A program made the translations under genes and the position numbers. Below are positions 1 through 17,411 of a stretch of 64,000 bases of DNA, piece by piece (the stretch's first letter is position 1; each line of letters starts with the position of its first letter). The stretch comes from an uncultured Lachnospiraceae bacterium. GTDB taxonomy: Bacteria > Bacillota > Clostridia > Lachnospirales > Lachnospiraceae. The notes under the pieces were generated by a model that did not search any database, was not told the DNA's origin, and was given only the letters and a program-made list of their open reading frames with translations. Location: contig CAYMUW010000012.1 of assembly GCA_964393865.1 (NCBI GenBank), positions 1,392-65,391 of the forward strand. Reading direction: 5' to 3'.

Positions 1-665
1 TGGCAAAATCCCATATGGATAAAAGCCTGAAAAGTGAATGTGGGATGCCTGCATGGATAGTTCCTGTTCAAGCCGGCAGGAGCTGTACTGACATAAAAAT
101 TGCCGAACTTTCGGATGACACCGGGGATAATATATCAGAAAAGAATCCTGACTTTTGCGAGCTTACAGTGACTTACTGGGTATGGAAAAATGTAGTGTGC
201 AGATATAAAGGAGTCTGCCATTACAGGAGAAGAATGCTCCTGAAAGATGAAGACATAACTAATATTTTTCAAGGCAATGTAGACATGATACTTCCTTTAC
301 CTTATATATGCTATCCCAATGCAACAGGCCAATATATGAGATACATATCAAAAGAAGACAGAAAACATCTGGAAACGGCTTTAGCTTATGTGTCACCTGA
401 GAGTGTTGATGTTCTCCATGAGATAGACGGTCAACAGATTTATTATGATTTTAATATGGTTATAGCAAAGAATGATGTTTTTGATGATTATGCAGACTGG
501 ATGTTTAGCATCCTCTTTGAAGCAGAAAAATCATGTGTGCCTGACGGAAAAATACGAGGGGACAGATATGCGGGATATTTGGGAGAGCTTCTGACCACCA
601 TATATATTTTCAAAAACAGGGATAGATTAAAAATTGTTCATGGAGAAAGGGATTGGTTAGTATGA
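1..665 (+). CDS. DUF4422-family glycosyltransferase-like protein (5' end lies outside the window)
   Basis: The frame is open from the window edge, upstream of the first ATG at 15. Motifs [22 protein letters not shown] and HYRRR are typical of DUF4422 proteins from capsule/EPS loci. Confidence 0.75.
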
Positions 666-1564
666 ATGAACAGACTCATTTGGATGCTTTAGAAGCAGAA
701 GCAGTTTACATTATGCGTGAAGTGGCGGCGGAATGCGAAAAACCAGTCATGCTGTATTCCATCGGCAAGGATAGCTCAGTAATGCTGCACCTTGCCATGA
801 AGGCATTTTATCCGGAAAAACCGCCCTTTCCATTCTTACATATTGATACGACGTGGAAATTCCATGAGATGATAGAATTCCGTGACTATACAGCAAAAAA
901 ATATGGGATTGAAATGCTGGTTTATACGAATGAAGAAGGAATCGCCAAGGGAATCAATCCGTTTGACCATGGTGCTGCCTATACGGATATCATGAAAACA
1001 CAGGCTTTGAAACAGGCACTTGCCAAGTATGGGTTTACGGCTGCTTTTGGCGGAGGCAGACGTGATGAGGAAAAATCACGTGCCAAAGAGCGTATTTTTT
1101 CTTTTAGGAATAAGGAGCAGGCATGGGATCCAAAGAATCAGCGCCCGGAGATGTGGAACGAATATAATACGTGTATCCATTTGGGAGAAAGCATTCGAGT
1201 ATTCCCAATCTCAAACTGGACAGAAAAAGATATTTGGCAGTACATAGAGCGCGAAAATATAGAGATTGTTTCTTTGTATTATGCCAGGAAACGCCCGGTG
1301 GTATACCGTGATGGAAATATCATTATGCCAGATGATGACCGCATGCCAATCCGTGAGGGTGAAGAAATAGTCATGAAGAAAGTCCGCTTCAGAACCTTAG
1401 GTTGTTATCCTCTGACGGGCGCTATTGAGTCGGAAGCTGATACCTTACCGAAAATCATTGCGGAAACGTTGGGAGCCGTATCCTCGGAAAGAAGCAGCCG
1501 GGTAATTGACAGTGATGGAGGCGCCGCAAGCATGGAAAAACGAAAGAGGGAGGGGTATTTTTAA
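662..1564 (+). CDS. cysD: sulfate adenylyltransferase subunit 2 (CysD)
   Basis: Full-length CysD-like sequence with the PP-loop-type motif [13 protein letters not shown]. The ATG at 662 overlaps the upstream stop (ATGA) and follows the RBS GGAGAAAGGGA. The ORF track starts at a TTG at 653. Confidence 0.95.
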
Positions 1565-3396
1565 TGGATGGGCTGTTGAAATTCATTACCTGCGGAAGTG
1601 TTGATGACGGAAAATCAACGCTGATTGGACATATGCTTTACGATGCTAAGCTTTTGTATGCGGATCAGGAAAAGACTTTGGAATTGGACAGCAGGGTAGG
1701 GAGCAGGGGCGGTGCGATTGATTATTCCCTTTTGTTGGATGGGTTGATGGCGGAAAGGGAACAGGGCATTACAATTGATGTCGCATACAGATATTTTACG
1801 ACTAGAAACAGGAGCTTTATTGTAGCAGACACGCCGGGACATGAGCAATATACTAGAAATATGGCCGTTGGCGCTTCTTTTGCCGATTTGGCAGTTATTC
1901 TCGTGGATGCCCTTCATGGCATACTGACACAAACGAGACGGCACTGCAGGATTTGTGCGATGATGGGGATAAAGTATTTTGTCTTTGCCGTGAATAAGAT
2001 GGATTTGGCAGATTATGAGAAGAATGTTTTTGCAAAGATAGAGAAGGATATTGAAAAGCTGTCAACTGAACTGAAACTGCATTCTGTTACCTGTATCCCG
2101 GTTTCTGCAGTCATGGGAGACAACGTTACGAACCGCTCGCAAAATATGGACTGGTATCATGGAAAGTCATTATTGGATTATCTGGAAACAATAAATGTCA
2201 GGGAGGAAACTGCAGAGGAAGGCTTTGTCATGCCAGTACAGAGGGTTTGCAGACCGGATCGTACATTTAGAGGTTTTCAGGGTCAAGTCGCATGCGGTGT
2301 GCTTGCAGCAGGAGAAACAGTTACTGTGCTGCCGAGCGGGGAGAAAGCTAAAGTTAAGTCTGTCTATAACACAGATAAACAGGTGGGGCAGATTTGCGCG
2401 GGACAGGCTGTGACGATTGCGCTTGACAGGGAGATTGATGTTTCAAGAGGCTGCGTATTTGTCAAGGATACCTCTGTGAAAAATGCGGATCTGTTTCAAG
2501 CGGGAATCCTGTGGATGGACGATGAGGAGCTTATTGACGGTAAATCTTTTCTGCTAAAAATCGGAACCAAAATGGTACCGGCTGCCGTTATGCATATAAA
2601 ATACAGGTTGGCCATAGATACAGGAGAGCATCTGACAGCATCACATATCCATAAAAATGACATGGCGGTCTGCGATATCGTGACATCCGAAAAAATTCCT
2701 TTTGATGAGTTCGCTAAGCATAGGGAGATAGGGCATTTTATACTGATTGATCGTATAACCGACATGACATCGGCATGCGGAGTTGTCAGGCATGAACTTC
2801 GTCGTTCAGAAAATCTTTTTTATCAGCAGATGGATGTGACCGGGGAACGGCGTGCGGCGATGATGAATCAAAGACCGGTTACATTATGGTTTACGGGATT
2901 ATCCGGAGCCGGCAAATCCACATTGGCAAATGAAGTAGAGAAGGCGTTGTTTCTGCGGGGAAAGCATACGATGTCACTCGATGGAGATAATATCAGAATG
3001 GGTCTTAACAAGAATTTAGGATTTACGCAGGAGGACAGAATAGAAAATATCCGGCGTATTGCCGAAGTGGCGAAGCTGATGAATGATGCCGGACTGATTG
3101 TTATGACATCGTTTATTTCGCCGTATCTGAGCGACCGGGAAAATGCGAGAAAAATTATAGGAAGTGGGAACTTTGTTGAAATCTATGTGTCAACGCCTCT
3201 CGCAGAATGCGAGAGGCGCGATGTGAAAGGACTGTACAGAAAAGCAAGGAATGGCGCCATTCCTAATTTTACAGGAATTGGAAGCCGATATGAGGAGCCG
3301 GAGAATGCGGATATCGTGGTTGACACGAGCAACATAACAATAGAAGCTGCCACTGCTTATATTTTAGAGCAGCTTGACAGGATGGAACTGCTATAA
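1564..3396 (+). CDS. cysNC: bifunctional sulfate adenylyltransferase subunit 1 / adenylylsulfate kinase (CysN-CysC fusion)
   Basis: N-terminal GTPase motifs GSVDDGKST, DTPGHEQY and NKMD. C-terminal APS-kinase P-loop GLSGAGKST. The start overlaps the cysD stop (TAATG). Confidence 0.95.
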   Translation: MDGLLKFITCGSVDDGKSTLIGHMLYDAKLLYADQEKTLELDSRVGSRGGAIDYSLLLDGLMAEREQGITIDVAYRYFTTRNRSFIVADTPGHEQYTRNMAVGASFADLAVILVDALHGILTQTRRHCRICAMMGIKYFVFAVNKMDLADYEKNVFAKIEKDIEKLSTELKLHSVTCIPVSAVMGDNVTNRSQNMDWYHGKSLLDYLETINVREETAEEGFVMPVQRVCRPDRTFRGFQGQVACGVLAAGETVTVLPSGEKAKVKSVYNTDKQVGQICAGQAVTIALDREIDVSRGCVFVKDTSVKNADLFQAGILWMDDEELIDGKSFLLKIGTKMVPAAVMHIKYRLAIDTGEHLTASHIHKNDMAVCDIVTSEKIPFDEFAKHREIGHFILIDRITDMTSACGVVRHELRRSENLFYQQMDVTGERRAAMMNQRPVTLWFTGLSGAGKSTLANEVEKALFLRGKHTMSLDGDNIRMGLNKNLGFTQEDRIENIRRIAEVAKLMNDAGLIVMTSFISPYLSDRENARKIIGSGNFVEIYVSTPLAECERRDVKGLYRKARNGAIPNFTGIGSRYEEPENADIVVDTSNITIEAATAYILEQLDRMELL

Positions 3397-4718
3397 TGGG
3401 GAAAAAGGCAAGATTTCTGATATCCATGTTTAAAATAGGAATGATAGGATTCGGCGGCGGCAATGCATTGATTCCGATAATTGAAAAAACGGTTGTAGAG
3501 GAGCAGAACCTTGTATCCAAAACAGAGTATGATGCGGATGTAATGATTGCAAGTATTACTCCTGGGGCACTTCCGGTTGAGATTGCGGGCGGAACTGGAC
3601 GGCGGTTGTTTGGGAGAGGTTATCTTATTGGCGGGGCTGTCGCAATGGCACTGCCGGGTGTCATATTGATGGTGGCGCTTGACGCTGCTATGACTTCGGT
3701 AAATGGGAATGTGTTGAAGCAGATCAATTTCCTGACAATCGGAATCTATGCATTTATCTGCTGTCTGCTGTCGGATTACATCGTGGGAACGGCGCATGAG
3801 AAACGGCAGGAATCTGCACTGCCGGCATGCATGACAGTAATAGGGCTTGTCATAGCTGCCACATGTGGGAAAAATATATATAGGCTGTTAGGGCGTGATA
3901 TACAGCATATCATAACGCTGAATACGATACAGGTATTTGCCGTGGCTTTTGCTGTGACGGCAGCAGTGGAAGGGGTGCGGTATCTTTTAGGATTTGGAAA
4001 GCAGCAGACATATACTATGGAAACCGGTTCCCTAAATTGGCAGACAGCGAAGAAAACAGTGGGGGAATTGCTGTCATGCCTTGCTTTTATGGTACTGCTT
4101 TCCATCCCTGCCCTGATTGTTTCAGAAGAAACGGTTTCGTTTATGGGGCGCGCATTCTTTTCTTCCCTGATTTCTTTCGGCGGAGGTGATGCATATCTTA
4201 CTGTTGCGGATGGGATGTTCGTGCACAAGGGCATGATATCGGAAGATGAATTCTACAGTGTGATTGTACCGCTGGTCAATACTCTGCCAGGTTCTATCTT
4301 GTGTAAGACGTTAAGCGGAATTGGATATTATATAGGATACGGCAGCGGCGGCTCGGTCATAAACGGAACTGCAGTAGCGTTATCCGGTTTTGCAGTCAGT
4401 ATATCGGCATCATGCAGCGTGTTTGCCGTGGCAGCAGGATTATACGAGGGATTGCAGAAAAGCAGGATATTCCGGGTTTTTCATAAGTGGATTAAACCGA
4501 TTGTATCGGGACTTTTGGTTAACGTGATGCTTTCTTTGTTGGTGCAGGTTCGCAGGATTGGCAGTTCCTGTGGAAATTCATTTGGTATATTCATATGTTT
4601 TGTGTTTATCCTGACGGCAAATATGATTCTGTATTACATAGTAAAGTTAAAGAATGAATGGATTATTTTATTTTCTGTTATGACTGCATTTGTTCTATGC
4701 AATGCGGTAGGGGTGTAA
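3396..4718 (+). CDS. chromate-transporter (CHR/ChrA) family membrane protein, two-domain form
   Basis: The CHR signature is duplicated: GFGGGNALIPIIEK in the N half and FGGGDAYLTVADG in the C half. There are many hydrophobic segments. The start overlaps the cysNC stop (TAATG). Confidence 0.8.
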   Translation: MGKKARFLISMFKIGMIGFGGGNALIPIIEKTVVEEQNLVSKTEYDADVMIASITPGALPVEIAGGTGRRLFGRGYLIGGAVAMALPGVILMVALDAAMTSVNGNVLKQINFLTIGIYAFICCLLSDYIVGTAHEKRQESALPACMTVIGLVIAATCGKNIYRLLGRDIQHIITLNTIQVFAVAFAVTAAVEGVRYLLGFGKQQTYTMETGSLNWQTAKKTVGELLSCLAFMVLLSIPALIVSEETVSFMGRAFFSSLISFGGGDAYLTVADGMFVHKGMISEDEFYSVIVPLVNTLPGSILCKTLSGIGYYIGYGSGGSVINGTAVALSGFAVSISASCSVFAVAAGLYEGLQKSRIFRVFHKWIKPIVSGLLVNVMLSLLVQVRRIGSSCGNSFGIFICFVFILTANMILYYIVKLKNEWIILFSVMTAFVLCNAVGV

Positions 4719-4720
4719 GT

Positions 4721-5500
4721 ATGTGGGAAAAAGAATTGGAAACTGCAAAGGAATGTGCCGTCCGTGCCGGCATAGCGGTAATGGACATCTATATCGGACA
4801 GGATGGTTTGGATGTTCAGTATAAAGATGATGACTCCCCACTGACTGCAGCAGATAGGGCATCTAATCAAATTATTGTGGAAACCCTGAAAAAGATGTTC
4901 CCCCTGTATGCTGTTTTATCGGAGGAAGAGAAGGATTCAAGGGAGCGTCTCAGTAATGATTTCTGCTTTGTTGTTGATCCGTTAGACGGTACAAAGGAAT
5001 TTATCAAAAGGAACGGACAGTTTACGGTCAATATTGCGTTAAGTTACCGGCATAAGTCGGTGATGGGTGTAATCTATGTCCCGGCAAGGGGAGAGTTATT
5101 TTATGCTGCACAGGGCAGAGGGGCATTCTTAAAGACACAGGGAAGCGCTGCTCCTGTCAGACTGAAAGTATCTGACAGATTTGGGGATTTACGCTGTGTC
5201 ATGAGCAGCTCTCATAACTGCCAGGAGATGGAAAATCTGATAAAAAAGCATCATTTAAAGAATTTCATCAAAATGGGAAGCTCACTCAAAGGCTGTATCA
5301 TTGCGAAAGGAGAAGCTGAAATCTATTACCGATACAACCCAACAATGGAGTGGGACACGGCGGCAATGCAGTGTATTGTGGAAGAGGCAGGGGGCATTTT
5401 ACGGCAGATGGATGATAGTGAGATGACGTATAATAGGGAAAATCCGTTGAATGATAAAGGATTCTATGTGATTAACAGGAAAGAGAACAGGATTAGATAA
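4721..5500 (+). CDS. cysQ: 3'(2'),5'-bisphosphate nucleotidase (CysQ, inositol monophosphatase fold)
   Basis: Motifs LSEEE, VVDPLDGTKEFI and EWDTAAMQCIVEEAGG. The ATG at 4721 (MWEKELE) lies 2 nt after the upstream stop. The longer track ORF from 4658 overlaps the transporter. Confidence 0.85.
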   Translation: MWEKELETAKECAVRAGIAVMDIYIGQDGLDVQYKDDDSPLTAADRASNQIIVETLKKMFPLYAVLSEEEKDSRERLSNDFCFVVDPLDGTKEFIKRNGQFTVNIALSYRHKSVMGVIYVPARGELFYAAQGRGAFLKTQGSAAPVRLKVSDRFGDLRCVMSSSHNCQEMENLIKKHHLKNFIKMGSSLKGCIIAKGEAEIYYRYNPTMEWDTAAMQCIVEEAGGILRQMDDSEMTYNRENPLNDKGFYVINRKENRIR

Positions 5501-5516
5501 CAAGGGAGGGAAACAG

Positions 5517-8500
5517 ATGAATTTTAAGCTGGTATCAGTTATTATACCTGTTTATAATGTAGAGGCTTATATTGAAAAATGTATAATGAGTATTGTAAGC
5601 CAGACATACAAGAATCTTGAAATAATTTTTGTTAATGACGGTTCTGAGCAAGAGGAGGAATCCATTATCAAGCAATATATGGAAAGAGATTCCAGGATTC
5701 ATTATATCAAGAAAAATGCAAACGAAGGCTTGTTTCGCGCAAGAGTAACGGGGGTGAAGGCCTCACATGGAGATTATATTCAATTTGTAGACAGCGATGA
5801 CTATATTAATGAGGATTTTATACGTCTTTTGGTGAGAAAAGCAGAAGAAGAGGACAGTGATATCACATTTGCACGAACTGTCACATGCACTCCGCGTGGA
5901 AGTGAAAGTATCTATGTGTTCCAAAATATGGAATTATATCAATTGCCTCTTGAAGGATTGGAACTGAAAAAGGCATATTATGGTCAGCATGGTTTTGCAT
6001 ATATTTTTCATACAATCTGGAATAAGCTTTATAAGAGGGAACTATGGATGCAGGCATTGCCGTATTTTGAAAAATTGGGAACGCCGATTGTTATGACGGA
6101 AGATATAGCATTTTCATCAATACTTTTTTATTTCGCTCATAAAGCTTCATGTACAGAAAACGCCGTGTATTTTTATTGTAAGCATACGGATGCCTCAACG
6201 GATTCTAAAGTCATTACTTTAAACCAGTATAAAAAAAGGATTGGAAATGTATGCACTGTTTTTGATTTCCTGCAGGATTTTTTTTCGGACAAAGAAAAGT
6301 GGATCCAAGATTGTATGGCGGATTTTAGGAGATATTATGGGCGTATGTGGCACCGGATTGCCGAGGAGATGGATGAGGCGGAACGGAGTCAGGCATTAGT
6401 GTTATGTAAACGATTAGCGGATGTTGAGTTGGACGATAAGAGTTCTGCCATGGATGATAATTATTTTTGTTATATGGAGATTCCTTACAGTAAATGCCTG
6501 GATGAGATTAAAAAACGTATTTACGAGGGAAGCGAGAGCGTAATCAGCTTTGATGTCTTTGACACGGTGGTTGCTCGTCCCTTTTTCCATCCGACAGACT
6601 TATTTGCTTTTTTGGATAAAAAGTTTGAAGAAATCTATTCTTCAAATATCTCGTTTCAGACAATCAGAACGGAAGGAGAAGAGGGATGCAGAAAGCAGTT
6701 GTGTGACGAGAAGCGCGAGGATGTCACACTGGAAGAAATCTATCAGTATATCAGTGAAATGTATGATATTCCATGGGAAAAAGCCCATAAACTTATGGAA
6801 TATGAAGAAGCATTAGAAATTGAGTTTAATTTCAGGAGAAACACGGGGTATGAATTATATTCACTTGCTTTAGACGCAGGGAAAAAAGTTATTTTCACAT
6901 CGGATATGTATCTTCCTAAGTCCTGCATTGCCAAAATATTGCATAAAAACGGATATACACGGTATGAAGCCGTCTATGTATCCTCTGAATATAAAAAATT
7001 GAAATATACCTCAAGCTTATATAGAGCAGTGCTTTCGGAAATGCACGTAAAACCGGAGGATATCCTTCATATTGGAGATAATCAGGATGCGGATGTAAAT
7101 GGCGCTGAAAAAATAGGAATATCGACAGTTTATATTCCAAAGTCTATGGATGCGTTTTGTGGTAATACGAAAAAGATTACAAATCATCATCGCTTTACGA
7201 TGGGAAAGGACATCGGAGGCAGCTATAGAGGAATGAAGAGCTTTGAAAAAAATATTGCTTATGGAGCAACCATTGCTCTTGCGTCAATAAAATATTTTGA
7301 TAACTCCTATTGTGGTTTCAATGACTTTACTGATTTTAACGTGGATGGTTATTTTGCAGGTTATTACCTGCTGGGAACAAGCCTGCTCGGACAGATTGCA
7401 TGGTTGGAAAATATTGTAAATGAAAAAGGGATTAAAAGGATTATATTTACATCTAGAGACGGCTATCTGCTTATGGAAGCATATAGGCGTTATTTAAAGA
7501 TATGTAAGAAAGAGAAAGAAGTTCTATATTTTTATGTATCTAGAAGGAGCATGATGCCTTGGATTTTGAAAGATAAATTAGATTTTATGTCACTGCCCAT
7601 TGTTTATCAAAAGTATTCACCTGACAGTGTTGAGGAGCTGCTGAGCTTCTGTATATCACACGAAAGTGATGAGGAATGGGAAGATGTTCTTAACACGAAT
7701 GATATCATACGTACTCGTGAATTTGCCTCCATTGTGGAATATCACAAGTTTATGAATTTATTTTTGGCATATAGATATAGCAGTTCAGAGCATATGAAAG
7801 CAAAAAAAACAGTATCACAATATTGCAGTGTGATACATAACGATGACGGCATCTATGACTTGGGTTATAGTGCCTCCATACATAAAGCAATCTGCGATGC
7901 GAGTGGTCGGAAACCTACAGCGCTTTTCATGCATTCGGATGCCGAGAAACATCTGAAAAATGAGCGCATTGGTGGATTTGAGATTGTAAGTATGATGGAT
8001 ACGATTCCTAATGCTAACGGACTTTTGAGAGAATTTTTCTTTTCGGATACGGGAGGAAGTTGTATCGGCTATGAACAAAATGGACAGACAACCCCAATCA
8101 TAGAAAACGAAGATAAAAATTATTCGGATCTGTTTCCAATCCGAATGATGCAGATGGGAGCCTTAAAAATGGTTGATGATTTTTATCATATTTTTAAGGA
8201 TTATCTTCCGTATATGGAAATCAGGACGGAAGAAATGCTGCTGCCTTTTGAAAGTTTTCTGGCATTTCCTGCGGTCATTGATACGAAGATGTTTGCAGCA
8301 TCTTATTTTGAGGACAAGGTATATGGAAAAATCAGTCAGATAAACGTTAGGGATTTTTGGATGCAGCTATTGATTAACCAGCCGGGATATCAGAAAAATG
8401 ACATTATCCATTATTTTGATGAACTGTTAAAAAAATACCATAAGAAAAAACTGGCTTTTTTTGGAACCGGTAAAATGTGCGAAGCAATGTTTGAAACAAA

Positions 8501-8717
8501 TCCTGATATACCTGTGGAGATTTATTTGGATAACGATATAAGAAAAACAGGACAGAAATATAGAGGCAGGAAGATTTATTTACCCAAAGATTATCCGAAT
8601 TTGAAAGAATTATATATTGTTGTTGTCATTGCTTTTTACAAAGAAGTAGAAGAACAGTTAAGGGATATGGGATTGGTGAAATACGAAGATTATCTCAATT
8701 ATTTGGAATTGTTTTAA
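5517..8717 (+). CDS. 1066-aa multidomain protein: GT2 glycosyltransferase + HAD-like hydrolase + unassigned region + C-terminal Rossmann-like module
   Basis: N-terminal GT2 motifs VSVIIPVYNVEAYIEKC..FVNDGS and DSDD. HAD-type DxDxT motif (FDVFDTVV) and HIGDNQDAD. C-terminal FFGTG..LDNDIRKTGQKYRG. RBS GGGAGGGAAACAG precedes the ATG. Confidence 0.8.
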   Translation: MNFKLVSVIIPVYNVEAYIEKCIMSIVSQTYKNLEIIFVNDGSEQEEESIIKQYMERDSRIHYIKKNANEGLFRARVTGVKASHGDYIQFVDSDDYINEDFIRLLVRKAEEEDSDITFARTVTCTPRGSESIYVFQNMELYQLPLEGLELKKAYYGQHGFAYIFHTIWNKLYKRELWMQALPYFEKLGTPIVMTEDIAFSSILFYFAHKASCTENAVYFYCKHTDASTDSKVITLNQYKKRIGNVCTVFDFLQDFFSDKEKWIQDCMADFRRYYGRMWHRIAEEMDEAERSQALVLCKRLADVELDDKSSAMDDNYFCYMEIPYSKCLDEIKKRIYEGSESVISFDVFDTVVARPFFHPTDLFAFLDKKFEEIYSSNISFQTIRTEGEEGCRKQLCDEKREDVTLEEIYQYISEMYDIPWEKAHKLMEYEEALEIEFNFRRNTGYELYSLALDAGKKVIFTSDMYLPKSCIAKILHKNGYTRYEAVYVSSEYKKLKYTSSLYRAVLSEMHVKPEDILHIGDNQDADVNGAEKIGISTVYIPKSMDAFCGNTKKITNHHRFTMGKDIGGSYRGMKSFEKNIAYGATIALASIKYFDNSYCGFNDFTDFNVDGYFAGYYLLGTSLLGQIAWLENIVNEKGIKRIIFTSRDGYLLMEAYRRYLKICKKEKEVLYFYVSRRSMMPWILKDKLDFMSLPIVYQKYSPDSVEELLSFCISHESDEEWEDVLNTNDIIRTREFASIVEYHKFMNLFLAYRYSSSEHMKAKKTVSQYCSVIHNDDGIYDLGYSASIHKAICDASGRKPTALFMHSDAEKHLKNERIGGFEIVSMMDTIPNANGLLREFFFSDTGGSCIGYEQNGQTTPIIENEDKNYSDLFPIRMMQMGALKMVDDFYHIFKDYLPYMEIRTEEMLLPFESFLAFPAVIDTKMFAASYFEDKVYGKISQINVRDFWMQLLINQPGYQKNDIIHYFDELLKKYHKKKLAFFGTGKMCEAMFETNPDIPVEIYLDNDIRKTGQKYRGRKIYLPKDYPNLKELYIVVVIAFYKEVEEQLRDMGLVKYEDYLNYLELF

Positions 8718-8732
8718 ATGCGGAGGAAGTTT

Positions 8733-10092
8733 ATGAGCCATAAGTTGATTGTACATATTGGAATGCCCAAAACGGGAACCACTGCTATTCAGGATTTTTT
8801 GTTTGATAATTCGGAAAAGCTGAAAAAGTACGGATATTGTTATCCGGATCTGATTAGTGAACTGAGAGATAGGGAATATGACATAAAGTGCAGACAGGAA
8901 GGGTTGACTAAAAATGGCGTTGTTCTTTCTTTATTCAGAAGCTGGGAAGACCATTCTGACATTAATAAAGTCAATGAAAAAGCATGGTATTTATTTAAGG
9001 AATTATTGGAAAAGCATCTTGCTGTATGTAATGTGATTATTTCGGATGAAGATTTATGGTGTCAAGGGAATAATTATGCGATATTAAGGCGCTTAAAAGA
9101 GATATGTAATGATATGAAAATCATATGCTACATAAGACGGCAGGATTTGGAAGCAGAAGCTTTGTGGAATCAGGTGGTCAAAAGATACGGATATTGTAAT
9201 ACACCGTTTCCTGAAAGTAAAAGCAGATGGCTGGACGGCAGAGCCATGAAATATCAGGAATTGCTGGAAAATTTTGAAAAAATCGCTGGCTTTGAAAAAT
9301 TGCATGTCCGTGTGTATGAAAAACAACAGTTGTATGGCATCAACGGAGATATTGTAGAGGATTTTTTACATATTCTTGGTATTGAAAAAGGCTGTGAAGA
9401 ATGGATAGAGCGAAAAAAATCAAATGAGCGGTTGAACGGCAGTATGCTAAATATAAAAATGAACATGAACAAGAGTTTATCAAAAGAGAATTGGTTTTCA
9501 GCAATTGTGGAAGAACAGTTTATGAACGTGATTGCCAAGCATTGCAGCTTTGGAGAGGAGCTTATGGAGGGTTATTTTACCTTGGAAGAAAGGCAGCAAG
9601 TGATAGAACGATTTCAAGACGAAAACAGGATAATCGCTAAAAGGTTTTTGGGAAGATTGGATGGAAGACTGTTTTATGATGAAGTGAAGGATATGCCGCT
9701 GCATTCTGATGAGATTTCAAGTGCAGACATGGTGGAAGTATTTACCGCAATGATTCTGGAGTTGAATGAAAAGATATGGAAGCTGTACTCAAAAGGGTAT
9801 GCTGGTATGATAGGTTCCAGGAAATGCACTTTATTTGGAGCGGGGGGGGCAATGCAGAAAGTTTTGCTCTATATATAGTGAGTTACCGATTGACTTGGTT
9901 GTTGACAATGACAGGAGTAAAACAGGGACAAAAATATACGGTCACAGTGTAAAACACTTTGATGAAATAGCAGATTGGAACGAGCGTTTTATTATTATTA
10001 CATGTTACGCGTATAAAGATATTTCAGAGCAACTGCAGGGTGTTGGAATGCGGGAGAACACGGATTTTATTGTTTTTTTCGATGCTGAATAA
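8733..10092 (+). pseudogene. sulfotransferase-like protein interrupted by a frameshift in a G8 tract (frames 8733-9878 and 9835-10092)
   Basis: PAPS-binding-like motifs IVHIGMPKTGTT and IRRQDLEAEALWNQ. The protein is collinear with the intact paralogue at 10104-11468. The reading frame is restored by deleting one G at 9842-9849. Confidence 0.75.
9842..9849 (+). repeat. G8 homopolymer at the frameshift point
   Basis: Read directly: gga gcGGGGGGGGc aat. The stop follows 8 codons later in the current frame. Confidence 0.95.
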
Positions 10093-10103
10093 GGAGGCAA
10101 TCT

Positions 10104-11468
10104 ATGCAAAACAGAATAATAGTACATATTGGAATGCCGAAGACAGGTACTAGTTCCATTCAGAATTTTTTATTTGATAATGCCGAGAAATTAAGACAAT
10201 ATGGGTATTGTTATCCTGATTTTTTGAAAGAGATGAATGAGGCGGGATATGTTATGGCGGCAAGACCAGTGGAACGGAGCAAAAATGGGCTTGCTGCGAT
10301 TATATTGAGAGAATGGGAAGTTCAGACTGATTGTAAAAATAAATTCGCAGAAGCATGGAATTCCCTTGAAACAAAAATAGTTTCATATCTGAAACGGTAT
10401 CATGTAATTATTTCATGTGAAGAAATTTGGATTAGGAAAAATTGTTTTGAATTACTTAGCTGGTTAAAACATATAACCCCTAATATCTGCGTGGTTGTGT
10501 ATTTGAGAAGACAGGATCTGGCAATGGAAGCTATGTGGAATCAAGACATAAAAAGATATAGATATTTGGGGAAAACGCTAGCGCAATGTCTGGAAGGTCC
10601 GGAAAAGGAGTGGATGGAGGAAAGAGTATTAGGATATCTCGAAAAACTAACAAAAGTACAGGATATTGTTTCGATGGATAACATGATTGTACGTATATAT
10701 GAATCACAGCAGATGTATCAAATGTCTGGCGATGTGATTGATGATTTTTTATATACATTGGGAATCCCGATAAGTGACGGTGAATGGATTAAACGCAATC
10801 CATCCAATGAAAGATTGAATGGCAGTTTGCTGAATATCAAGAAGACAATGAATGAATGTTTAGCAGGAAGAGAATGGTTCTCGGGAATCATAGAAGAATA
10901 TGTATTAAAAGCTGCTTCTGAACTAAACTTTCCCAATGAAAAAGAAGCATATTTTTCATTGGAAGAAAGAAAAAGATTTATTGAAAGTTATGCGGAAGAA
11001 AACAGTGAGATTGCGAAAAAATTTTTGAAACGTTCTGACGGAAGACTGTTTTATGATGAAGTAAAAGATCTTTCGTTACATACGGATACAATCTTATTGG
11101 AAGATATCATTAAGTTGTTTACTTACATCGCATTGGAACAGGAAAAAAAAATTTATGAAAAAACCAAATTTTGTATTCCTGATTTTTTGCTGAAAGGCAG
11201 AAAACTGACATTGTTCGGGGCAGGGTATCAATGTAAAAAATTTCTCGCTCAGAATAACTTATCGGTAGACCTGATTGTAGATAACAATCGAAGTAAATCA
11301 GGAACAGAGATATATGGCTGTAAAGTCAAGCATTTTGATGAAGTAACAGATTGGAGTCAAAGATTTGTGGTAATTACATGTGTTGCATGTTTGGAAATGA
11401 TAGAACAATTAAGAGCATTGGGTATGCAGTACAATCTGGATTTTGTTGTATTTGAAGATAATGTATAA
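10104..11468 (+). CDS. sulfotransferase-like protein with C-terminal Rossmann-like module (intact paralogue)
   Basis: Motifs IVHIGMPKTGTS (5'-PSB-like) and YLRRQDLAMEAMWNQ (3'-PB-like). C-terminal LFGAGYQC..VDNNRSKSGTEIYG. RBS AAGGAGG. The gene sits next to the PAPS synthesis genes. Confidence 0.75.
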   Translation: MQNRIIVHIGMPKTGTSSIQNFLFDNAEKLRQYGYCYPDFLKEMNEAGYVMAARPVERSKNGLAAIILREWEVQTDCKNKFAEAWNSLETKIVSYLKRYHVIISCEEIWIRKNCFELLSWLKHITPNICVVVYLRRQDLAMEAMWNQDIKRYRYLGKTLAQCLEGPEKEWMEERVLGYLEKLTKVQDIVSMDNMIVRIYESQQMYQMSGDVIDDFLYTLGIPISDGEWIKRNPSNERLNGSLLNIKKTMNECLAGREWFSGIIEEYVLKAASELNFPNEKEAYFSLEERKRFIESYAEENSEIAKKFLKRSDGRLFYDEVKDLSLHTDTILLEDIIKLFTYIALEQEKKIYEKTKFCIPDFLLKGRKLTLFGAGYQCKKFLAQNNLSVDLIVDNNRSKSGTEIYGCKVKHFDEVTDWSQRFVVITCVACLEMIEQLRALGMQYNLDFVVFEDNV

Positions 11469-11482
11469 GAAATAAAACATAT

Positions 11483-12535
11483 ATGCTATGGGGAAAGATT
11501 ATGCAGATCAATAGTTATGAGTTAAAGCCTATACTGGCAACAATTATAAAGGCTGATGAAAGGATGTTTTACGCAGCTTCAAAGGGAGTCCGTATCGTTG
11601 AATGGAATTCTATTGGAATCAACATACTTTATGCCGAGGAAACTGATAATCTGTGGGGAGCGTTCCATTTTTCGGCTGTATTTCATGAGAGTATTTTTTT
11701 CTTTCCACGTAATTATGATTATGTTATAAAATATGACATTATCCAAAAACAAACAGAAAAAATTGCTGTTCCAGGGAAACAAAACGAAGAATTTATGCTT
11801 CCGTATATCAATAATGATGCTTTTATGATGATAGGACTGAGCAGCGGCAATGTGTACAAATGGGTTGATGAATGTGCATTTGAAAAGGTATCGCAGCTGG
11901 ATTGGGGATGTGAACAGTGGAAACTTAATAAACAAGGCGCACGAATTGAAAATATACTCTTTTGGAACACAGATAAAGAAATTGCAATTTTAGACAAAGA
12001 GAATCTGATGATTAAGAGGATAGTCATTTCAACTGATGAAATTTTGTATGCGGCTGGAGATGAGAGGCATTTATTTTGGGTATCGGAGTCGGGAGATGTA
12101 TATTCCCAGTATGATAAGTTCGGAGATTTTAACTACTTGTTTCATTTGGAATTTCCTGTTTCTGATTTAGCGCGTTTTATATATCGTGAGCATAGCCTAT
12201 ATCTTTTGCCCCACACCGGTAATCAGATTTATGTGATAAAGGAAAATTCGGAAGCATCGGTTGTAAACCTAGAGTTGGATTTAAAGGATAAAAATGTGAA
12301 TTGGGCAGTTTGTGAAGACGGTTTCATCGGAGTGGCAGAGAATATTGATAAACCATGGAATGGGGAGTTGACCTTTTTTACTTATAATCCGTCCGGTCAT
12401 ATAGTATTGAAACTTCCTTTTGAAGAGGCTGCAATGAAATACTTGTTCCATAAGAATATAAAAAACGGGATTTTGATTCGAGAAGGAGAAAATAACGATT
12501 TAAAGACATATTTAAAACTTGTAAAAGGGAGCTGA
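11483..12535 (+). CDS. hypothetical soluble protein (no motif recognised)
   Basis: Long ORF in the operon orientation with low-GC codon usage like its neighbours. An alternative start is the ATG at 11501 after GGGGAAAG. No TM segment or signal peptide is seen. Confidence 0.6.
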   Translation: MLWGKIMQINSYELKPILATIIKADERMFYAASKGVRIVEWNSIGINILYAEETDNLWGAFHFSAVFHESIFFFPRNYDYVIKYDIIQKQTEKIAVPGKQNEEFMLPYINNDAFMMIGLSSGNVYKWVDECAFEKVSQLDWGCEQWKLNKQGARIENILFWNTDKEIAILDKENLMIKRIVISTDEILYAAGDERHLFWVSESGDVYSQYDKFGDFNYLFHLEFPVSDLARFIYREHSLYLLPHTGNQIYVIKENSEASVVNLELDLKDKNVNWAVCEDGFIGVAENIDKPWNGELTFFTYNPSGHIVLKLPFEEAAMKYLFHKNIKNGILIREGENNDLKTYLKLVKGS

Positions 12536-12630
12536 CATTATGATGCGAGATTCATGTTTATCACATGTTGAATGGTTTGGCAATGAAAAAGAAACAGTTT
12601 TATGTGCAGTGATTGTATTAAGGGAGAAAA

Positions 12631-13827
12631 ATGATTAGTATTATTGTTCCAATCTATAATGTGGAATCTTATCTGTATCAGTGTATGGACAGTATTATCA
12701 AACAGACTTATCAGGATATTGAAATTATTTTGGTGGATGACGGTTCCCTTGACGGTGGAGGAAAGATCTGCGATGCCTATGCCGGGCGCGATTGCAGAAT
12801 CAAAGTGATCCATAAAGAAAACGGGGGTCTTGTCAGTGCGCGAAAGGCCGGATTATCTGTGGCGGAAGGAGAATGGATCGGCTATGTGGACGGCGATGAC
12901 TGGATTGAGCCGGATATGTATGAGAAATTGATGATTAAGGCTTTGGAATATGATGCTGATATTGCTATGTGCGGCAGATATGAAGATACAGGGGATATAT
13001 CAAAACCTGTATATCATGGCTTCCCCGAAGGATATTATGACAGGAATAAGCTGCTGACAGAGATTTATCCCAAAATGATGGTGGGAAGGGATTTTTTTGA
13101 ATGGGGGATTTTCCCCGGTGTATGGGATAAGCTTTTCAAGAGGGAAATAATAGAGGATTTCCAGATGCAGGTAGATGAGAGGATTATGATGGGTGAGGAT
13201 GCAGCCTGCGTGTATCCGTGTATGCTGTCGGCCAAAAGAGTGTATATATTGCACGAATGCCTCTACCATTACAGGCAGTCAACGGATTCTATGATAAAAA
13301 GGAAGGAGGATACCGCAGTTGAAAGAGAACGCTTTGAAATACTGTATACCTCTGTATTGCAGCAGTTGGATAGGCTGAAGGGCGTATACAGTCTAACAAA
13401 CCAGTGGAAAAAATATATGCTTTTTCTTATGCTTCCAAGGGCTGACAGTTTATATGACGGGGTTGAAAACCTGGATTATCTCTTTCCGTTTCCCGGCGTA
13501 TCAAAGGGCGAAAAAATCTTGTTGTACGGAGCCGGAACATATGGGCAAAGATTGTACCAATGGTTAAAGGAGTCTTCGTTTTGCAGCGTAATCATGTGGG
13601 CTGACAGGAATTATAAGGAAATCCAAAAGCATGGATTGGACGTGCGCAGTCCGGAGGAAATCAGGAATGCGGATTTTGACCATATCGTAATTGCTATCAT
13701 CAATGCAGGAGTGAGGAAAGCAGTCAAAAGAGAGCTTGCGGAAATCTATGGGGAGAACAAAGTGGAGGGCATTGATGAGAAACTGATCATGAGTGAGGAT
13801 ACAGAAAGGAAATTCCGCATGAGATAG
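12631..13827 (+). CDS. GT2 glycosyltransferase with C-terminal Rossmann-like module
   Basis: Motifs ISIIVPIYNVESYLYQC..LVDDGS and DGDD. C-terminal LLYGAGTYGQ..WADRNYKEIQKHGLDV. RBS GGGAG. Confidence 0.85.
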   Translation: MISIIVPIYNVESYLYQCMDSIIKQTYQDIEIILVDDGSLDGGGKICDAYAGRDCRIKVIHKENGGLVSARKAGLSVAEGEWIGYVDGDDWIEPDMYEKLMIKALEYDADIAMCGRYEDTGDISKPVYHGFPEGYYDRNKLLTEIYPKMMVGRDFFEWGIFPGVWDKLFKREIIEDFQMQVDERIMMGEDAACVYPCMLSAKRVYILHECLYHYRQSTDSMIKRKEDTAVERERFEILYTSVLQQLDRLKGVYSLTNQWKKYMLFLMLPRADSLYDGVENLDYLFPFPGVSKGEKILLYGAGTYGQRLYQWLKESSFCSVIMWADRNYKEIQKHGLDVRSPEEIRNADFDHIVIAIINAGVRKAVKRELAEIYGENKVEGIDEKLIMSEDTERKFRMR

Positions 13828-13973
13828 ATGGAAAATCAAATGAAAGAAATAGAAAAAATGCTGATTATGGACGAGTCTGGCTAATTGGGAAAAAGTATTT
13901 TATTTAAGCGGTGTTAATTCCGATGTTGGAAAACCTGAAAATAAAAGGCTGCCAGACAGGAGGCAGGAAGAAA

Positions 13974-14960
13974 ATGGAAAAAATACTGATCACGGGCGCG
14001 TCCGGCTACATCGGCTCCATGCTCGTAAAGCATATCCTGAGTGAGGACAGCGGCGCAGAGATTACAGCGCCGCTGAGGAGGACTGCCGGGACAAGGCTTC
14101 CGGCATCGGACAGGCTTCGCATTATAAAGATGGACCTATCGGAAAAATCCGCATTGGACAGTCTCGCGCCGGACTGTTCCTATATCATTCACTGCGCATG
14201 TGCCACGAAATCGTCAGAGATGGCTGCGCATCCCGTGGAAACGGCGGCGGGCATTTTAAGCATCACGGAGAATGTCCTGTATTATGCCAAAAGGTGTCGG
14301 GAATCCGGAGCTTTAAAATCTATGGTCTACCTTTCGTCGATGGAGGTTTATGGAAACATCGATTGTTCTGACGGACACCGGGCAGCGGAGGACGAGATGG
14401 GCTATATAAACCCGCTTGCCGCCCGGAGCTGCTACCCACTGGGAAAACGCATGGCGGAGAACCTGTGCTATTCCTATTTTAAGGAGTATGGCGTCCCGGT
14501 GAAGATAGCCCGTCTTGCGCAGACCTTCGGGCACGGCGTCCTGCTGGATGACAGCCGCGTGTTCGCGCAGTTTGCAAGGGCGGCGGCGGAAGGGCGGGAT
14601 ATCGTCCTGCACACGGAAGGAAAGTCCATGGGGAACTACTGCGGCATAGATGACGCCGTAAAAGGCATCCTGACGATCCTGCGGCGCGGAGCTGACGGCG
14701 AGGCCTACAACGTGGTGAACGAGACGAACACCATGAGCATCCGTGAGATGGCGGAGCTTGTGGCGGAAAAGCTTGCGAAAGGTCAGATCAAAGTGGTCTG
14801 TGACATCCCCAAGGATAACGTGTATGGCTATGCGCCCGACACGGGGCTGCGGCTTTCGGGCAGGAAGCTGATGGGGCTTGGATGGATGCCGGCGCAGGAT
14901 CTTGCGGAGATGTACCGGGATGCGGCGGAGGATATGGCAGCTCAAGGAGCAGCGCCTTGA
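13974..14960 (+). CDS. NAD-dependent epimerase/dehydratase (SDR family)
   Basis: Motifs ILITGASGYIGS (GxxGxxG) and YPLGK (YxxxK). RBS AGGAGG. GC is visibly about 60% against about 30-38% in the upstream locus. Confidence 0.85.
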   Translation: MEKILITGASGYIGSMLVKHILSEDSGAEITAPLRRTAGTRLPASDRLRIIKMDLSEKSALDSLAPDCSYIIHCACATKSSEMAAHPVETAAGILSITENVLYYAKRCRESGALKSMVYLSSMEVYGNIDCSDGHRAAEDEMGYINPLAARSCYPLGKRMAENLCYSYFKEYGVPVKIARLAQTFGHGVLLDDSRVFAQFARAAAEGRDIVLHTEGKSMGNYCGIDDAVKGILTILRRGADGEAYNVVNETNTMSIREMAELVAEKLAKGQIKVVCDIPKDNVYGYAPDTGLRLSGRKLMGLGWMPAQDLAEMYRDAAEDMAAQGAAP

Positions 14961-14980: not shown

Positions 14981-16429
14981 TTATGAGCGGTAAGTTTCCA
15001 TGCCTGGTTTAAGAGCCGCGTCCTGTCCTTTTGCGGCAGGATGTCCGAGATACTGTTCCATATTAGCCATTTTCTGTTTAAGAGATCTGGCTTCCTGCTC
15101 GGCTGATCTGCATGTTTTCTCAAGAGCGGTCTTACGGGTCAGCATCGCTTCATAGTCAGCACGGATCTCATCCGAATCGACAGATTTCGGGTCAAGCCCT
15201 ATCTTTTGGAGCATACGCTCAGCGCCGTCATACAGGATCAGCTGGGTTTCGTGCATCCGAAGGTATCTGTCCGGATCTTTTGATCTATTATATTTCTCCT
15301 GATACGGTTTATTGTCCCTGTACTGCTCTGCATAGAGGAGCAGTTCTGAGATTTTTTTCATTTCATGCTCCAGTTCCACAAGCCCGGTGCGGGCAGATCT
15401 TGCCCCTGCGGTCTTTTCATCTATCTGCTCATGGAGCTCAGCCAGGCTATCTGCGGCGGCGTAACTGGAAGCGGCAGTTTTGAGGTTCTTAATAGCTGCC
15501 CAGTGCTGCAGTCCGGGGCTGCTTTTGAATTTCTCGCTGGTGGTGTCGATAAGCGTTCTGCTCGCACTGGTGCGGGTGATGATGTCCTTCTTTGGAACCT
15601 TGATCCGTGATTTCTGTTTAGGAGCCTCTGTAGTAACAGGCTCCTGACAGTCCTGTTTTACATTCTGCCATTTCTCCGGATTCTCAATCCTGTCTTTGAT
15701 ATCCTCTTTGGTATATCCTAATCCAAAATTGCGTAAGCTGCCGCGCACCGAACGCTCCTGTCCTGGGGCAAGGAACTTTATATATTTCGCATGAGGATCA
15801 CCGATTTTTTCTCCGGTGATTTTGTAGCCTTTTTCTCTGATCAGGCGCAGGAACTCTTCATAGGATTCAGAGAGTTTGATGCATTCATCAATATCTGCCT
15901 GCAGCCGCTTTTTCCATGAGATGCCTTCCTGTTCGGCTTTCCACTCCACATATTTTTTGCCTTTTCTGCCGCTCGGCTCAATGATGGAAAGGTTGTGTTC
16001 CTTGCATAATTCATCACTGAGCTGCCGGATGTGGTAATAGCTTTTCTTGCAGGCGTTATATTTTTTGTGGTCGATATTATCGGCGGCGCAGAAAATGATG
16101 TGGTTATGAGGGTGGCCTTTATCCACGTGGGTTGCTACAACATAGGAGTATTTTCCTTCCAGCAATCTGTCGGCAAGCTCAATTCCGATTCTGTGTGCTT
16201 CTTCGTAAGAAACCTCACCTTTTGCAAAAGACTGGATCAGGTGATATGCCAGATTTTTATCGGAGGACTTCGTTCTGCAAAGAGCGTAATCAAAGTCATG
16301 CCTGGCAGTATCGGGATGACAGCCAAAAGAATCAACAAGCAGTTGCTGCTCGGTTTTATCAGGGTTACAAATATAATTTACAGCTTTTGTAACGGTACTT
16401 TTGATAGCATGGATTCGTGTGTATGCCAT
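14981..16429 (-). CDS. relaxase/mobilisation nuclease (MobA/VirD2 family)
   Basis: N-terminus MAYTRIHAIKS..YICNPDKT, HLIQSF, and the histidine triad HVDKGHPHNHIIF. Confidence 0.9.
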   Translation of the reverse strand: MAYTRIHAIKSTVTKAVNYICNPDKTEQQLLVDSFGCHPDTARHDFDYALCRTKSSDKNLAYHLIQSFAKGEVSYEEAHRIGIELADRLLEGKYSYVVATHVDKGHPHNHIIFCAADNIDHKKYNACKKSYYHIRQLSDELCKEHNLSIIEPSGRKGKKYVEWKAEQEGISWKKRLQADIDECIKLSESYEEFLRLIREKGYKITGEKIGDPHAKYIKFLAPGQERSVRGSLRNFGLGYTKEDIKDRIENPEKWQNVKQDCQEPVTTEAPKQKSRIKVPKKDIITRTSASRTLIDTTSEKFKSSPGLQHWAAIKNLKTAASSYAAADSLAELHEQIDEKTAGARSARTGLVELEHEMKKISELLLYAEQYRDNKPYQEKYNRSKDPDRYLRMHETQLILYDGAERMLQKIGLDPKSVDSDEIRADYEAMLTRKTALEKTCRSAEQEARSLKQKMANMEQYLGHPAAKGQDAALKPGMETYRS

Positions 16430-16722
16430 ATCTTATCCATCAGCTCCTTTATCTCATTTAGGTCTTCTTCGTAAATATTCCCGGTTTTCATAATCCGCGT
16501 TCTTATCATGTTTATGTTTCTTCCGAGTGCGGCGATCTGATAGTTGTATTCTTTCAGACCGCTATAGTCGATGTCGTAGGTATAACCGTACAGGATCAGG
16601 TGACGGATATACTCGGATATATTTCGCATTTTGGATGCCTTGAACTTTTCATCCAGGACATATTTTTCATCTTCACTGAGATATACCTGTATGGGGATTT
16701 TGCGTTCCCGCTCTTTACTCAT
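16378..16722 (-). CDS. mobC: relaxosome accessory protein MobC
   Basis: RHH-like N-terminus (IQVYLSEDEKYVLDEK) and GRNINMIRTRI typical of the MobC family. It lies immediately upstream of, and overlaps, the relaxase. Confidence 0.85.
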   Translation of the reverse strand: MSKERERKIPIQVYLSEDEKYVLDEKFKASKMRNISEYIRHLILYGYTYDIDYSGLKEYNYQIAALGRNINMIRTRIMKTGNIYEEDLNEIKELMDKIWHTHESMLSKVPLQKL

Positions 16723-16829
16723 GATGAGACACTTCCTTTCAATATTGCCGTTTCCGGCGAATTATCTTTTTGGCAGAAATGCTTCGGTTTCCGTAGAGGT
16801 AAAAAGATGTAGTTCTGCATTAACGGGGG

Positions 16830-17160
16830 TCAGGGGGGAGTATCCCCTTGCAAGCTCATTTGCGCGTAACTTCGAGGCAGGCGGACATGCTCGCATGGAC
16901 ATCTGCCGAGAAGCGCGGCATCGGGCAGTTTATTGCCCGATGCGCCATTTTTCCGGCAGGAGAAATGGTCAGCAAATGTGGATGTGTCATGACACATCCA
17001 ATGCTTGGTATTCTTCTTGCAAATCCGTCAGGATTTGCGGGTTCAGACTGCCATAGGGCAGGCGGCTTTGAACCCATAACGCCGTATCCGGCGATTGTTC
17101 TTATGCTTTTGTACTGTGGGGAAAATAACGGTAAAATAAAAAACTGCCACAGTACGGGCG
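16830..17160. other. candidate oriT / structured DNA region upstream of mobC
   Basis: Noncoding stretch with clustered inverted repeats at 16918-16943, 16979-17000 (perfect 22-nt palindrome), 17019-17038 and 17111-17119/17147-17155. Confidence 0.4.
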
Positions 17161-17357
17161 CACGGGCAGCGCCGGTAATCGTAGCAGTTTTGGTGTTTTC
17201 TTGAAGTAACTCAAATTTTATCAGATGAACCGGTGATGGTCAATGTGTTTAATAGAAAATCGTCCACAAGTTGGGGGCGATTTTCGGTCGAAAAAATTCA
17301 ACTCAATCTGGGGTAAAATTGACGAGCGCTGCATAGAATATAGGAAACAGATTTTTC

Positions 17358-17387
17358 TTGACTAGGGTCTATATCACGGTATATACT
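17358..17387 (+). promoter_or_regulatory. putative sigma-A promoter of vapBC
   Basis: TTGACT (17358-17363), 18-nt spacer, TATACT (17382-17387), about 25 nt upstream of the vapB ATG. Confidence 0.45.
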
Positions 17388-17411
17388 ATAAATGAAAGGA
17401 AGGTGATCATT

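Follow-up and report, generated by a model that had tools for sequence, protein, structure and literature searches.

The 64,000-nucleotide stretch of DNA analysed here, which is part of contig CAYMUW010000012.1 of an uncultured Lachnospiraceae bacterium and is referred to as the window, begins with a cluster of genes for sulfate activation, glycosyl transfer and putative sulfotransfer. We estimate a probability of about 0.6 that positions 1 to 13827, together with an open reading frame (ORF) of 133 amino acids just upstream, form one operon for glycan synthesis and sulfation in the cytoplasm, which would take up and activate sulfate, build a glycan that probably contains ribofuranose, and O-sulfate this glycan with one or both of two sulfotransferases from a new family. 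The earlier note on this DNA had proposed that the locus makes its own 3'-phosphoadenosine 5'-phosphosulfate (PAPS) in order to sulfate a glycan, and this central proposal was supported by the fold of the two sulfotransferase-like proteins, by the linkage of their family to the sulfate activation genes cysD, cysN and cysC (cysDNC) across species, and by the packing of the operon.

All genes from position 1 to 14960 lie on the + strand. The first is a DUF4422 (GT111-like) glycosyltransferase gene (1..665; Pfam PF14393, 154 bits), the 5' end of which is cut by the window start. It is followed by cysD for the small subunit of sulfate adenylyltransferase (653..1564; NF009214, 507.8 bits in comparison to a cutoff of 413), a fused cysN-cysC for the GTPase subunit and adenosine 5'-phosphosulfate (APS) kinase (1564..3396; NF004035, 840.6 bits, cutoff 715; Pfam GTP_EFTU and APS_kinase), a CHR-superfamily permease with two Chromate_transp domains (3396..4718; PF02417, 105 bits, cutoff 28.6), and cysQ for the 3'(2'),5'-bisphosphate nucleotidase (4721..5500, with the start taken from the gene call in L001; TIGR01331, 235.6 bits, cutoff 228.8). 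The glycan genes that come next encode a 1066-residue multi-enzyme in a single ORF (5517..8717; Pfam GT2 and HAD), sulfotransferase-like paralogue A, which is frameshifted (8733..10092; ORFs 8718-9878 of 386 residues and 9835-10092), the intact sulfotransferase-like paralogue B of 454 residues (10104..11468), an orphan soluble protein of 344 residues (11501..12535; the ORF at 11483-12535 has 350 residues), and a GT2 glycosyltransferase of 398 residues with a PglD_N-like C-terminal Rossmann tag (12631..13827; PF00535, 128 bits; PglD_N 26.5 bits, cutoff 23.4). From the DUF4422 gene to the orphan gene, neighbours either overlap by 13 nt (DUF4422 and cysD) or 1 nt, or are separated by gaps of 2 to 32 bp, with the two sulfotransferase-like genes sitting between glycosyltransferase genes at gaps of 11 to 32 bp; the gap from the orphan gene to the last GT2 gene is 95 bp. 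The four genes of the cys cassette (653-5500), permease included, are translationally coupled to the glycan genes. With a GC content of 0.37, the region 5517-13827 is poorer in GC than the cys genes (0.447) and the remainder of the window (0.44), in agreement with the low GC noted before for the glycan genes. Matches to Pfam and NCBIfam likewise agree with the cys genes, the CHR permease and the glycan genes of the earlier note, and CysD, CysN-CysC and CysQ all pass their curated NCBIfam cutoffs. The gene order given there has to be corrected, with the DUF4422 gene lying upstream of cysD and the second GT2 gene after the sulfotransferase-like genes, and what was described as a DUF4422 protein plus a GT2 enzyme at 5517-8717 is the one multi-domain ORF of 1066 residues.

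Paralogues A and B both carry IVHIGMPKTGT[TS], and the second motif is IRRQDLEAEALWNQ / LRRQDLAMEAMWNQ, so the two tandem proteins with PAPS-binding motifs reported in the earlier note are present with exactly the motifs quoted. A search of 5.8 billion proteins returned 55 relatives, none of them informatively named. In an alignment of 54 family members K13, T14, G15, E106, Y133, R135 and D214 were invariant, and the corresponding K, T, G, E, Y, R and D are all kept in paralogue A. The stretch HIGMPKTGT[TS] in both paralogues contains the 5'-phosphosulfate-binding (5'-PSB) motif PKxGT[ST] with its conserved Lys, and the PKTGT[ST] of the family differs from the Walker A pattern GxxxxGK[ST]. The family consensus YLRRQDxxxxSxYxQxxK has the R-x7-S spacing of the 3'-phosphate-binding (3'-PB) motif, in which R135 is invariant and Ser143 is conserved in at least 90% of the family. 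The family profile significantly matched one solved structure, the Alicyclobacillus sulfotransferase 3RNL (E 5e-7), with an alignment that covers both PAPS-binding motifs and in which the R-x7-S-x-Y-x-Q spacing lines up with the 3'-PB motif of 3RNL. The AlphaFold2 (AF2) model of paralogue B had a mean confidence (pLDDT) of 89.9, and its top Foldseek matches were human TPST1/2 in complex with 3'-phosphoadenosine 5'-phosphate (PAP) and 3RNL, with a probability of 1.00 and E-values from 1e-4 to 7e-4. The fold comparison proposed in the earlier note therefore came out in favour of sulfotransferases, and both paralogues are predicted to have a sulfotransferase fold along with the PAPS-binding motifs. 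TPST1/2 and 3RNL are the best structural and profile matches, with aligned PAPS-binding motifs, but identity to them is just 12-14% and the TM-scores are 0.27-0.49, and the family in the window has extra helical insertions and a C-terminal Rossmann-like domain. Paralogue B gave no match in Pfam, and neither paralogue matched an NCBIfam model. Judging by these comparisons, the two paralogues appear to represent a small, new and unannotated sulfotransferase family that lies below all curated thresholds.

The strongest evidence comes from other species, in which the family is linked to cysDNC. A scan of a single genome for each GTDB species yielded 208 relatives, and 79 loci were kept, almost all of them from Lachnospiraceae or other Clostridia of the mouse, rabbit and human gut. 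The results showed that cysD, cysN and cysC lie within 10 kb of a family member in 38 to 40 of the 79 loci of other species, usually arranged as a cysD-cysNC-sulfotransferase operon. Of the 79 loci, 11 have a CHR permease homologue adjoining cysDNC and 5 have cysQ. When the Pfam families around 19 of the cysDNC-sulfotransferase loci were counted, those of transport and regulation predominated (Chromate_transp 7, ABC permease 7, ABC ATPase 5, along with sulfate-type binding proteins and two-component systems), and glycosyltransferases were few. One locus (L012) independently combines two tandem sulfotransferases and cysD-cysNC-cysQ with GT2/GT4 genes. The long-form members of the family are all located in glycan loci, in large sugar-modification islands where tandem sulfotransferase pairs recur and where many enzymes carry the same C2185-like / PglD_N-like C-terminal domain. 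As for the compact cysD-cysNC-sulfotransferase operons (L014, L016, L029, L033, L079 and about 30 others), the sulfotransferase gene lies at about position 10001 and cysD at about 7200 of the locus, and a CHR permease or an ABC importer often accompanies them; four tandem sulfotransferase copies were seen in L047.

CysDNC and CysQ also serve sulfate assimilation, and the assimilatory genes were looked for in the same loci. The earlier note had reported no cysH or sulfite reductase in the window, and neither was present among the large ORFs of the 64 kb; in a tblastn search with CysH the only matches in the window were to cysD, and none of the related loci contained a true cysH. The query was considered sensitive, since even the paralogous CysD, with an identity of about 22%, was detected by it in all loci. 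With no cysH near the loci, the cassette therefore appears, at least in its local context, to serve sulfation and not assimilation. The permease at 3396..4718 can be assigned by its domains to the CHR superfamily, and it scored just 68 bits in comparison to a cutoff of 171.7 for TIGR00937, the chromate-efflux equivalog; we consider it a candidate sulfate importer.

The 1066-residue enzyme consists of a GT2 domain (residues 1-330), a CrpP-like HAD phosphatase (about 340-560), a CriT-like domain (about 560-980) and a C-terminal Rossmann-like tag. Residues 342-682 matched residues 385-718 of Bcs3 (8A0C) in a phmmer search (E 9e-12). Bcs3 is the capsule polymerase of Haemophilus influenzae type b, in which residues 374-591 form the CrpP HAD phosphatase and residues 592-1036 form CriT, a phosphoribosyl pyrophosphate (PRPP)-dependent ribofuranosyl-5-phosphate transferase (PMC10299916). 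The HAD nucleophile motif is FDIFDT in Bcs3 and FDVFDT in the 1066-residue enzyme, and, allowing for a 3-residue numbering offset, the PRPP-site residues S678-R679-D680 (SRDG in both proteins) and S707-R708 of CriT are kept, while R712 was not aligned. The match thus covers CrpP and the start of CriT with motifs kept. The enzyme differs from Bcs3 (CroT-CrpP-CriT) in having an N-terminal GT2 domain instead of the TagF-like CroT and the Rossmann-like tag instead of SH3b, and the polymerase role of Bcs3 is not implied by the match. The 1066-residue protein is probably a Bcs3-like combination of GT2, CrpP phosphatase and CriT ribofuranosyl-phosphate transferase, and on the strength of the CrpP/CriT match the glycan is predicted to contain ribofuranose, which we regard as probable; this ribofuranose module was overlooked in the earlier note. 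More than 1,259 proteins with the same architecture are widespread in Clostridia, and they are named at most 'HAD-IA family hydrolase'. DUF4422 shares its fold with WbbM, a UDP-Galf transferase of family GT111 (PMC12269835), and the window showed no gene for UDP-galactopyranose mutase.

A related C-terminal Rossmann-like domain (PglD_N / C2185-like) of about 85 residues is encoded at 8457-8717, 9856-10092, 11184-11468 and 13510-13827, and mutual alignment showed that it is common to the multi-enzyme, both sulfotransferases and the 398-residue GT2 enzyme. The assignment to C2185-like_N was sub-threshold for the proteins of the window, and only the 398-residue GT2 enzyme reached PglD_N; we therefore call the domain a shared Rossmann-like domain, on the basis of the mutual alignment and of its resemblance to the NAD-binding domain of Rex. 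In related loci it also tags methyltransferases, and the upstream 133-residue ORF (L002 834-1235), which carries a Rossmann-like GAG motif, aligns to it weakly (17% identity). The domain may serve as a docking or nucleotide-binding module. The orphan protein is predicted to be all-beta and has one homologue in the 5.8 billion proteins; it had no Pfam, NCBIfam or PDB match, and its AF2 model was unreliable (pLDDT 40). Distant homologues of the orphan occupy the same position in two syntenic loci (L087 and L089), and it belongs to the conserved core of such loci.

Among the related glycan loci, the closest relative, L087, is syntenic with the window, with identities of 56-65% over three parts of the multi-enzyme, 54% for the GT2 enzyme, 36% for DUF4422 and 22% for the orphan (E 5e-27, end to end). 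Between the multi-enzyme and the orphan it has two methyltransferases and a CBS-like protein, at the place where the window has the sulfotransferases. Further genes of L087 are those for ribulose-phosphate epimerase, an IspD-like protein and LicD, a set typical of teichoic-acid-like polymers. Its glycan genes are immediately preceded (1610-5322) by genes for AMP-binding, LuxE-like and LuxC-like proteins (acyl-protein synthetase, reductase), which hint at an acyl or aldehyde-derived substituent. In Clostridium beijerinckii (L086) a homologue is part of a polysaccharide locus with Wzm/Wzt (ABC2_membrane/Wzt_C), Bac_transf and Wzy_C. In L088 the homologous multi-enzyme is flanked by two PS_pyruv_trans genes, and two DUF4422 genes are present. 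The pyruvyl transferase that the earlier note placed beyond an inserted island is present in the window at 21856-23106 on the + strand, with a weak and partial PS_pyruv_trans match (36 bits, cutoff 25), and in view of the pyruvyl transferases of L088 it was plausibly once part of the locus and may be a displaced member of it.

Every functional step of the pathway proposed from these observations is a prediction. Sulfate would enter the cell, probably via the CHR permease, CysD and CysN would convert it to APS, and the fused CysC domain would make PAPS. A short glycan or repeat unit would be built by four glycosyl-transfer activities, which are those of the GT111-like DUF4422 protein, of the GT2 and CriT-like domains of the 1066-residue enzyme, and of the 398-residue GT2 enzyme. 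The CrpP-like phosphatase would remove the 5-phosphate of ribose, in which case the glycan should contain PRPP-derived ribofuranose. The two paralogues of sulfotransferase fold would then move sulfate from PAPS to hydroxyls of the glycan, and the PAP released, which is inhibitory, would be hydrolysed by CysQ. A wall glycopolymer is the most likely acceptor, as the context of the homologous loci suggests, and its priming and export would depend on genes in other parts of the genome.

Several observations weigh against a glycan-sulfating operon. The Ser143 position of the 3'-PB motif is Ala in both paralogues of the window and in their closest relative, P0002, a change that was overlooked in the earlier note. 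The Foldseek E-values are modest (1e-4) and P-loop kinases come close behind the top matches, as is expected for this fold. No curated sulfotransferase model was reached, with paralogue A scoring 16.7 bits for Sulfotransfer_3 in comparison to a cutoff of 27. Most cysDNC-sulfotransferase operons of other species are without nearby glycosyltransferases, which indicates that the family as such is not restricted to glycans. The region is also interrupted by a mobile element. Neither the 64 kb of the window nor the 1.27 kb before it contained a gene for a priming transferase, flippase, polymerase, exporter or LCP ligase, in line with the earlier note, which had seen no flippase, polymerase or priming transferase, and with no primer, flippase or exporter at hand a surface polysaccharide is something that we infer.

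The gene for paralogue A is also frameshifted, a point that the earlier note missed. A +1 frameshift at a G8 homopolymer (9842..9849, + strand) splits the protein between its catalytic domain and its C-terminal tag, so that the product stops early after TLFGAGG and the remainder continues in another frame as the ORF at 9835-10092. When one G was deleted in silico, a paralogue A of 452 residues was obtained that is 45% identical to paralogue B. The identical G8 is present in a Logan assembly of the same sample. Runs of G or C of at least 8 are rare in the 1.5 Mb of related loci, and the G8 run alone is statistically unremarkable, since 2.1 were expected in shuffled sequences and one per window is within chance; its significance rests only on its position. 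It could be a phase-variation (slipped-strand) switch, a fixed truncation or an assembly error. Truncated paralogue A could, by comparison with its relatives, still be catalytically competent, because natural short-form members of the family lack the C-terminal domain. Long G runs were also seen in two related loci, a G9 run (L005, 13460-13468) that is in frame (Gly-Gly-Gly) within the gene for a product with the Rossmann-like tag and a G11 run (L054, 17849-17859), and homopolymer switches may be recurring in these loci.

The alternative that survives best, although we consider it unlikely, keeps the same chemistry and takes as acceptor an O-glycan that is linked to a protein (flagellin, a pilin or an S-layer protein) and assembled wholly in the cytoplasm, which would explain the missing lipid-carrier, flippase and exporter genes. 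It is consistent with the composition of the locus, which has no export genes and no membrane-protein family other than the CHR permease, with the islands of the long-form homologues, which contain DegT, formyltransferase, FkbM-type methyltransferase, WbqC and radical SAM genes like flagellin glycosylation islands, and with the position of L089 directly downstream of flaG. However, a tblastn search with flagellin gave no match in the window or in any fetched related locus (within 10 kb), no Maf-type transferase was seen, and the genes of L086 (Wzm/Wzt and Bac_transf) and L087 (LicD and IspD) are typical of wall polymers; the homologous context favours a wall glycopolymer as acceptor.

In our view, it is quite improbable that the acceptor of the sulfotransferases is a lipid or a small molecule (a hydroxy fatty acid, a steroid or a glycolipid, for example), with the glycosyltransferases being separate or loosely connected. 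The lack of glycosyltransferases near most cysD-cysNC-sulfotransferase operons in other Lachnospiraceae would fit this explanation, as would the PAPS-dependent small-molecule sulfotransferases (SULTs) of gut Clostridia, namely ErSULT of Eubacterium ramulus (PMC13449962). In the window, however, the sulfotransferase genes are tightly enclosed by glycosyltransferase genes and their products share the C-terminal domain with glycosyltransferases, the long-form members occur in glycan loci throughout, and ErSULT is reportedly Stf1-like, whereas the family in the window matches TPST/3RNL and no Pfam model.

The least probable explanation, by which the cys genes belong to assimilatory reduction and adjoin, without functional meaning, genes for P-loop kinases or inactive relics that only resemble sulfotransferases (or, in a variant, the whole locus is decaying), could draw on the established use of CysDNC and CysQ in assimilation, on the Ser-to-Ala change, the frameshift in paralogue A, the nearby mobile element and the kinases close in Foldseek, but we judge it very improbable given that cysH is lacking within 10 kb in about 38 cysDNC-sulfotransferase loci as well as in the window, that PKTGT[ST] stands in place of a Walker A motif and R-x7-S-x-Y-x-Q aligns to the 3'-PB motif of 3RNL, that the linkage is kept across dozens of species with the genes translationally coupled, and that truncated paralogue A could still work in the manner of the natural short forms.

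The pairing of dedicated PAPS synthesis with a neighbouring carbohydrate sulfotransferase is known from other systems. NodP and NodQ of Sinorhizobium meliloti provide dedicated PAPS synthesis for the sulfation of Nod factor. Their partner NodH is described as a GlcNAc-6-O sulfotransferase (PMC11625862). The likeness to the present locus lies in a second-purpose set of the CysD/CysN-CysC type beside a PAPS-dependent carbohydrate sulfotransferase. The differences are that NodH reaches Pfam Sulfotransfer_3 and the family in the window does not, that the acceptor there is a lipochitooligosaccharide signal of a Gram-negative symbiont, and that a gut Firmicute here has the genes in a single operon together with those for GT2, GT111 and CriT enzymes. 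For two marine bacteria, Vibrio sp. KMM 8419 and Cobetia marina KMM 1449, gene clusters for sulfated capsular polysaccharides are reported together with the terms sulfotransferase and cysD/cysN/cysQ (PMC11641403, PMC11766843), which is where they resemble the window. Those clusters differ in being Gram-negative capsule loci with capsule structures determined, while the locus in the window has no export or priming genes, has another sulfotransferase family, belongs to an anaerobic gut Clostridium and is known from genes alone. Among commensal gut bacteria, PAPS-dependent sulfotransferases are represented by BtSULT of Bacteroides thetaiotaomicron and by ErSULT (PMC9417993, PMC13449962), and in this respect they resemble the present proteins. 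These two enzymes fall in annotated Pfam families and act on steroids or hydroxy fatty acids, whereas the family in the window is below every Pfam threshold, is structurally nearest to TPST/3RNL and is located inside a glycan operon.

New in comparison to these systems are the sulfotransferase family and the way in which it is systematically coupled to cysDNC among gut Lachnospiraceae, its insertion in a Bcs3-like ribofuranose glycan operon in place of methyltransferases, and the host group, as we found no report of a sulfated glycan from gut Clostridia in the literature. A bolder version of the proposal, which we regard as tentative and rather unlikely when taken as a whole, holds that the family, being hard-wired to cysD-cysNC in dozens of gut Lachnospiraceae, constitutes a widespread commensal sulfation system which was recruited here, via the C-terminal docking domain, into a glycan assembly line where it replaced the methyltransferases of sister loci, with one paralogue switched by slippage at the G8 run; the product would be the first sulfated ribofuranose cell-wall glycopolymer of a Firmicute.

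Sulfated glycans, such as mucins and glycosaminoglycans, dominate the host side of the gut interface. Those made by bacteria have been reported from only a handful of genera (PMC11625862). If the proposed pathway is true, commensal Lachnospiraceae would display host-like anionic epitopes, with consequences for mucus adhesion, Siglec/lectin recognition, phage receptors and antibody targeting. The sulfotransferase family, which is missed by current profile libraries and is linked in about 40 species to PAPS synthesis with no assimilatory branch nearby, offers access, at the level of genes, to the sulfated products of gut Firmicutes, which are poorly charted, and the widespread 'HAD-IA hydrolase' of Clostridia is probably a Bcs3-like ribofuranose-adding multi-enzyme.

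The limits of the locus were examined with a 15.4-kb Logan contig, which is an independent assembly of the same sample, is identical to the window where they overlap, and reaches 1,268 bp further upstream. The earlier note had expected the locus to continue upstream of position 1. The additional 1,268 bp contain the rest of the DUF4422 gene (complete protein 231 residues, L002), the 133-residue ORF and, beyond a gap of about 380 bp, the 3' terminal part of a gene that is unrelated, and the locus therefore does not continue in this direction. An Rfam scan of the locus and the upstream sequence showed no riboswitch or leader, and promoter and terminator scans gave sites no more frequent than in shuffled sequence, so these scans are uninformative on the operon limits.

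On the downstream side, the SDR epimerase/dehydratase gene (13974..14960, + strand; PF01370, 131 bits; generic, with no NCBIfam equivalog reached) is separated from the last GT2 gene by 146 bp, abuts a relaxase gene, and has a GC content of 0.57 in comparison to 0.37 for the glycan genes; the Logan contig ends inside it, at window position 14041. Its presence agrees with the earlier note, whereas the membership in the locus assumed there is doubtful, and from its GC and its position beside the relaxase the gene is probably outside the locus and arrived separately. The inserted island described there was found as a set of mobilisable-element genes on the - strand (14981..20230), which encode a MobA/VirD2 relaxase, a NikA-like protein, a VapB/VapC toxin-antitoxin pair, DUF6088 and a short tyrosine recombinase. 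The flanks of the island showed no convincing att-type direct repeats, and a comparison with the plasmid collection gave no match.

Housekeeping genes make up the remainder of the 64-kb window, including metG, dnaX, pfk, enzymes of cyclic di-GMP (c-di-GMP) metabolism and sugar ABC transporters. The c-di-GMP cluster at 32715-41852 comprises an HD-GYP-type HD_5 protein, two GGDEF proteins with Cache/periplasmic-binding sensors and a PucR-type regulator, and it shows no apparent connection with the sulfation locus.

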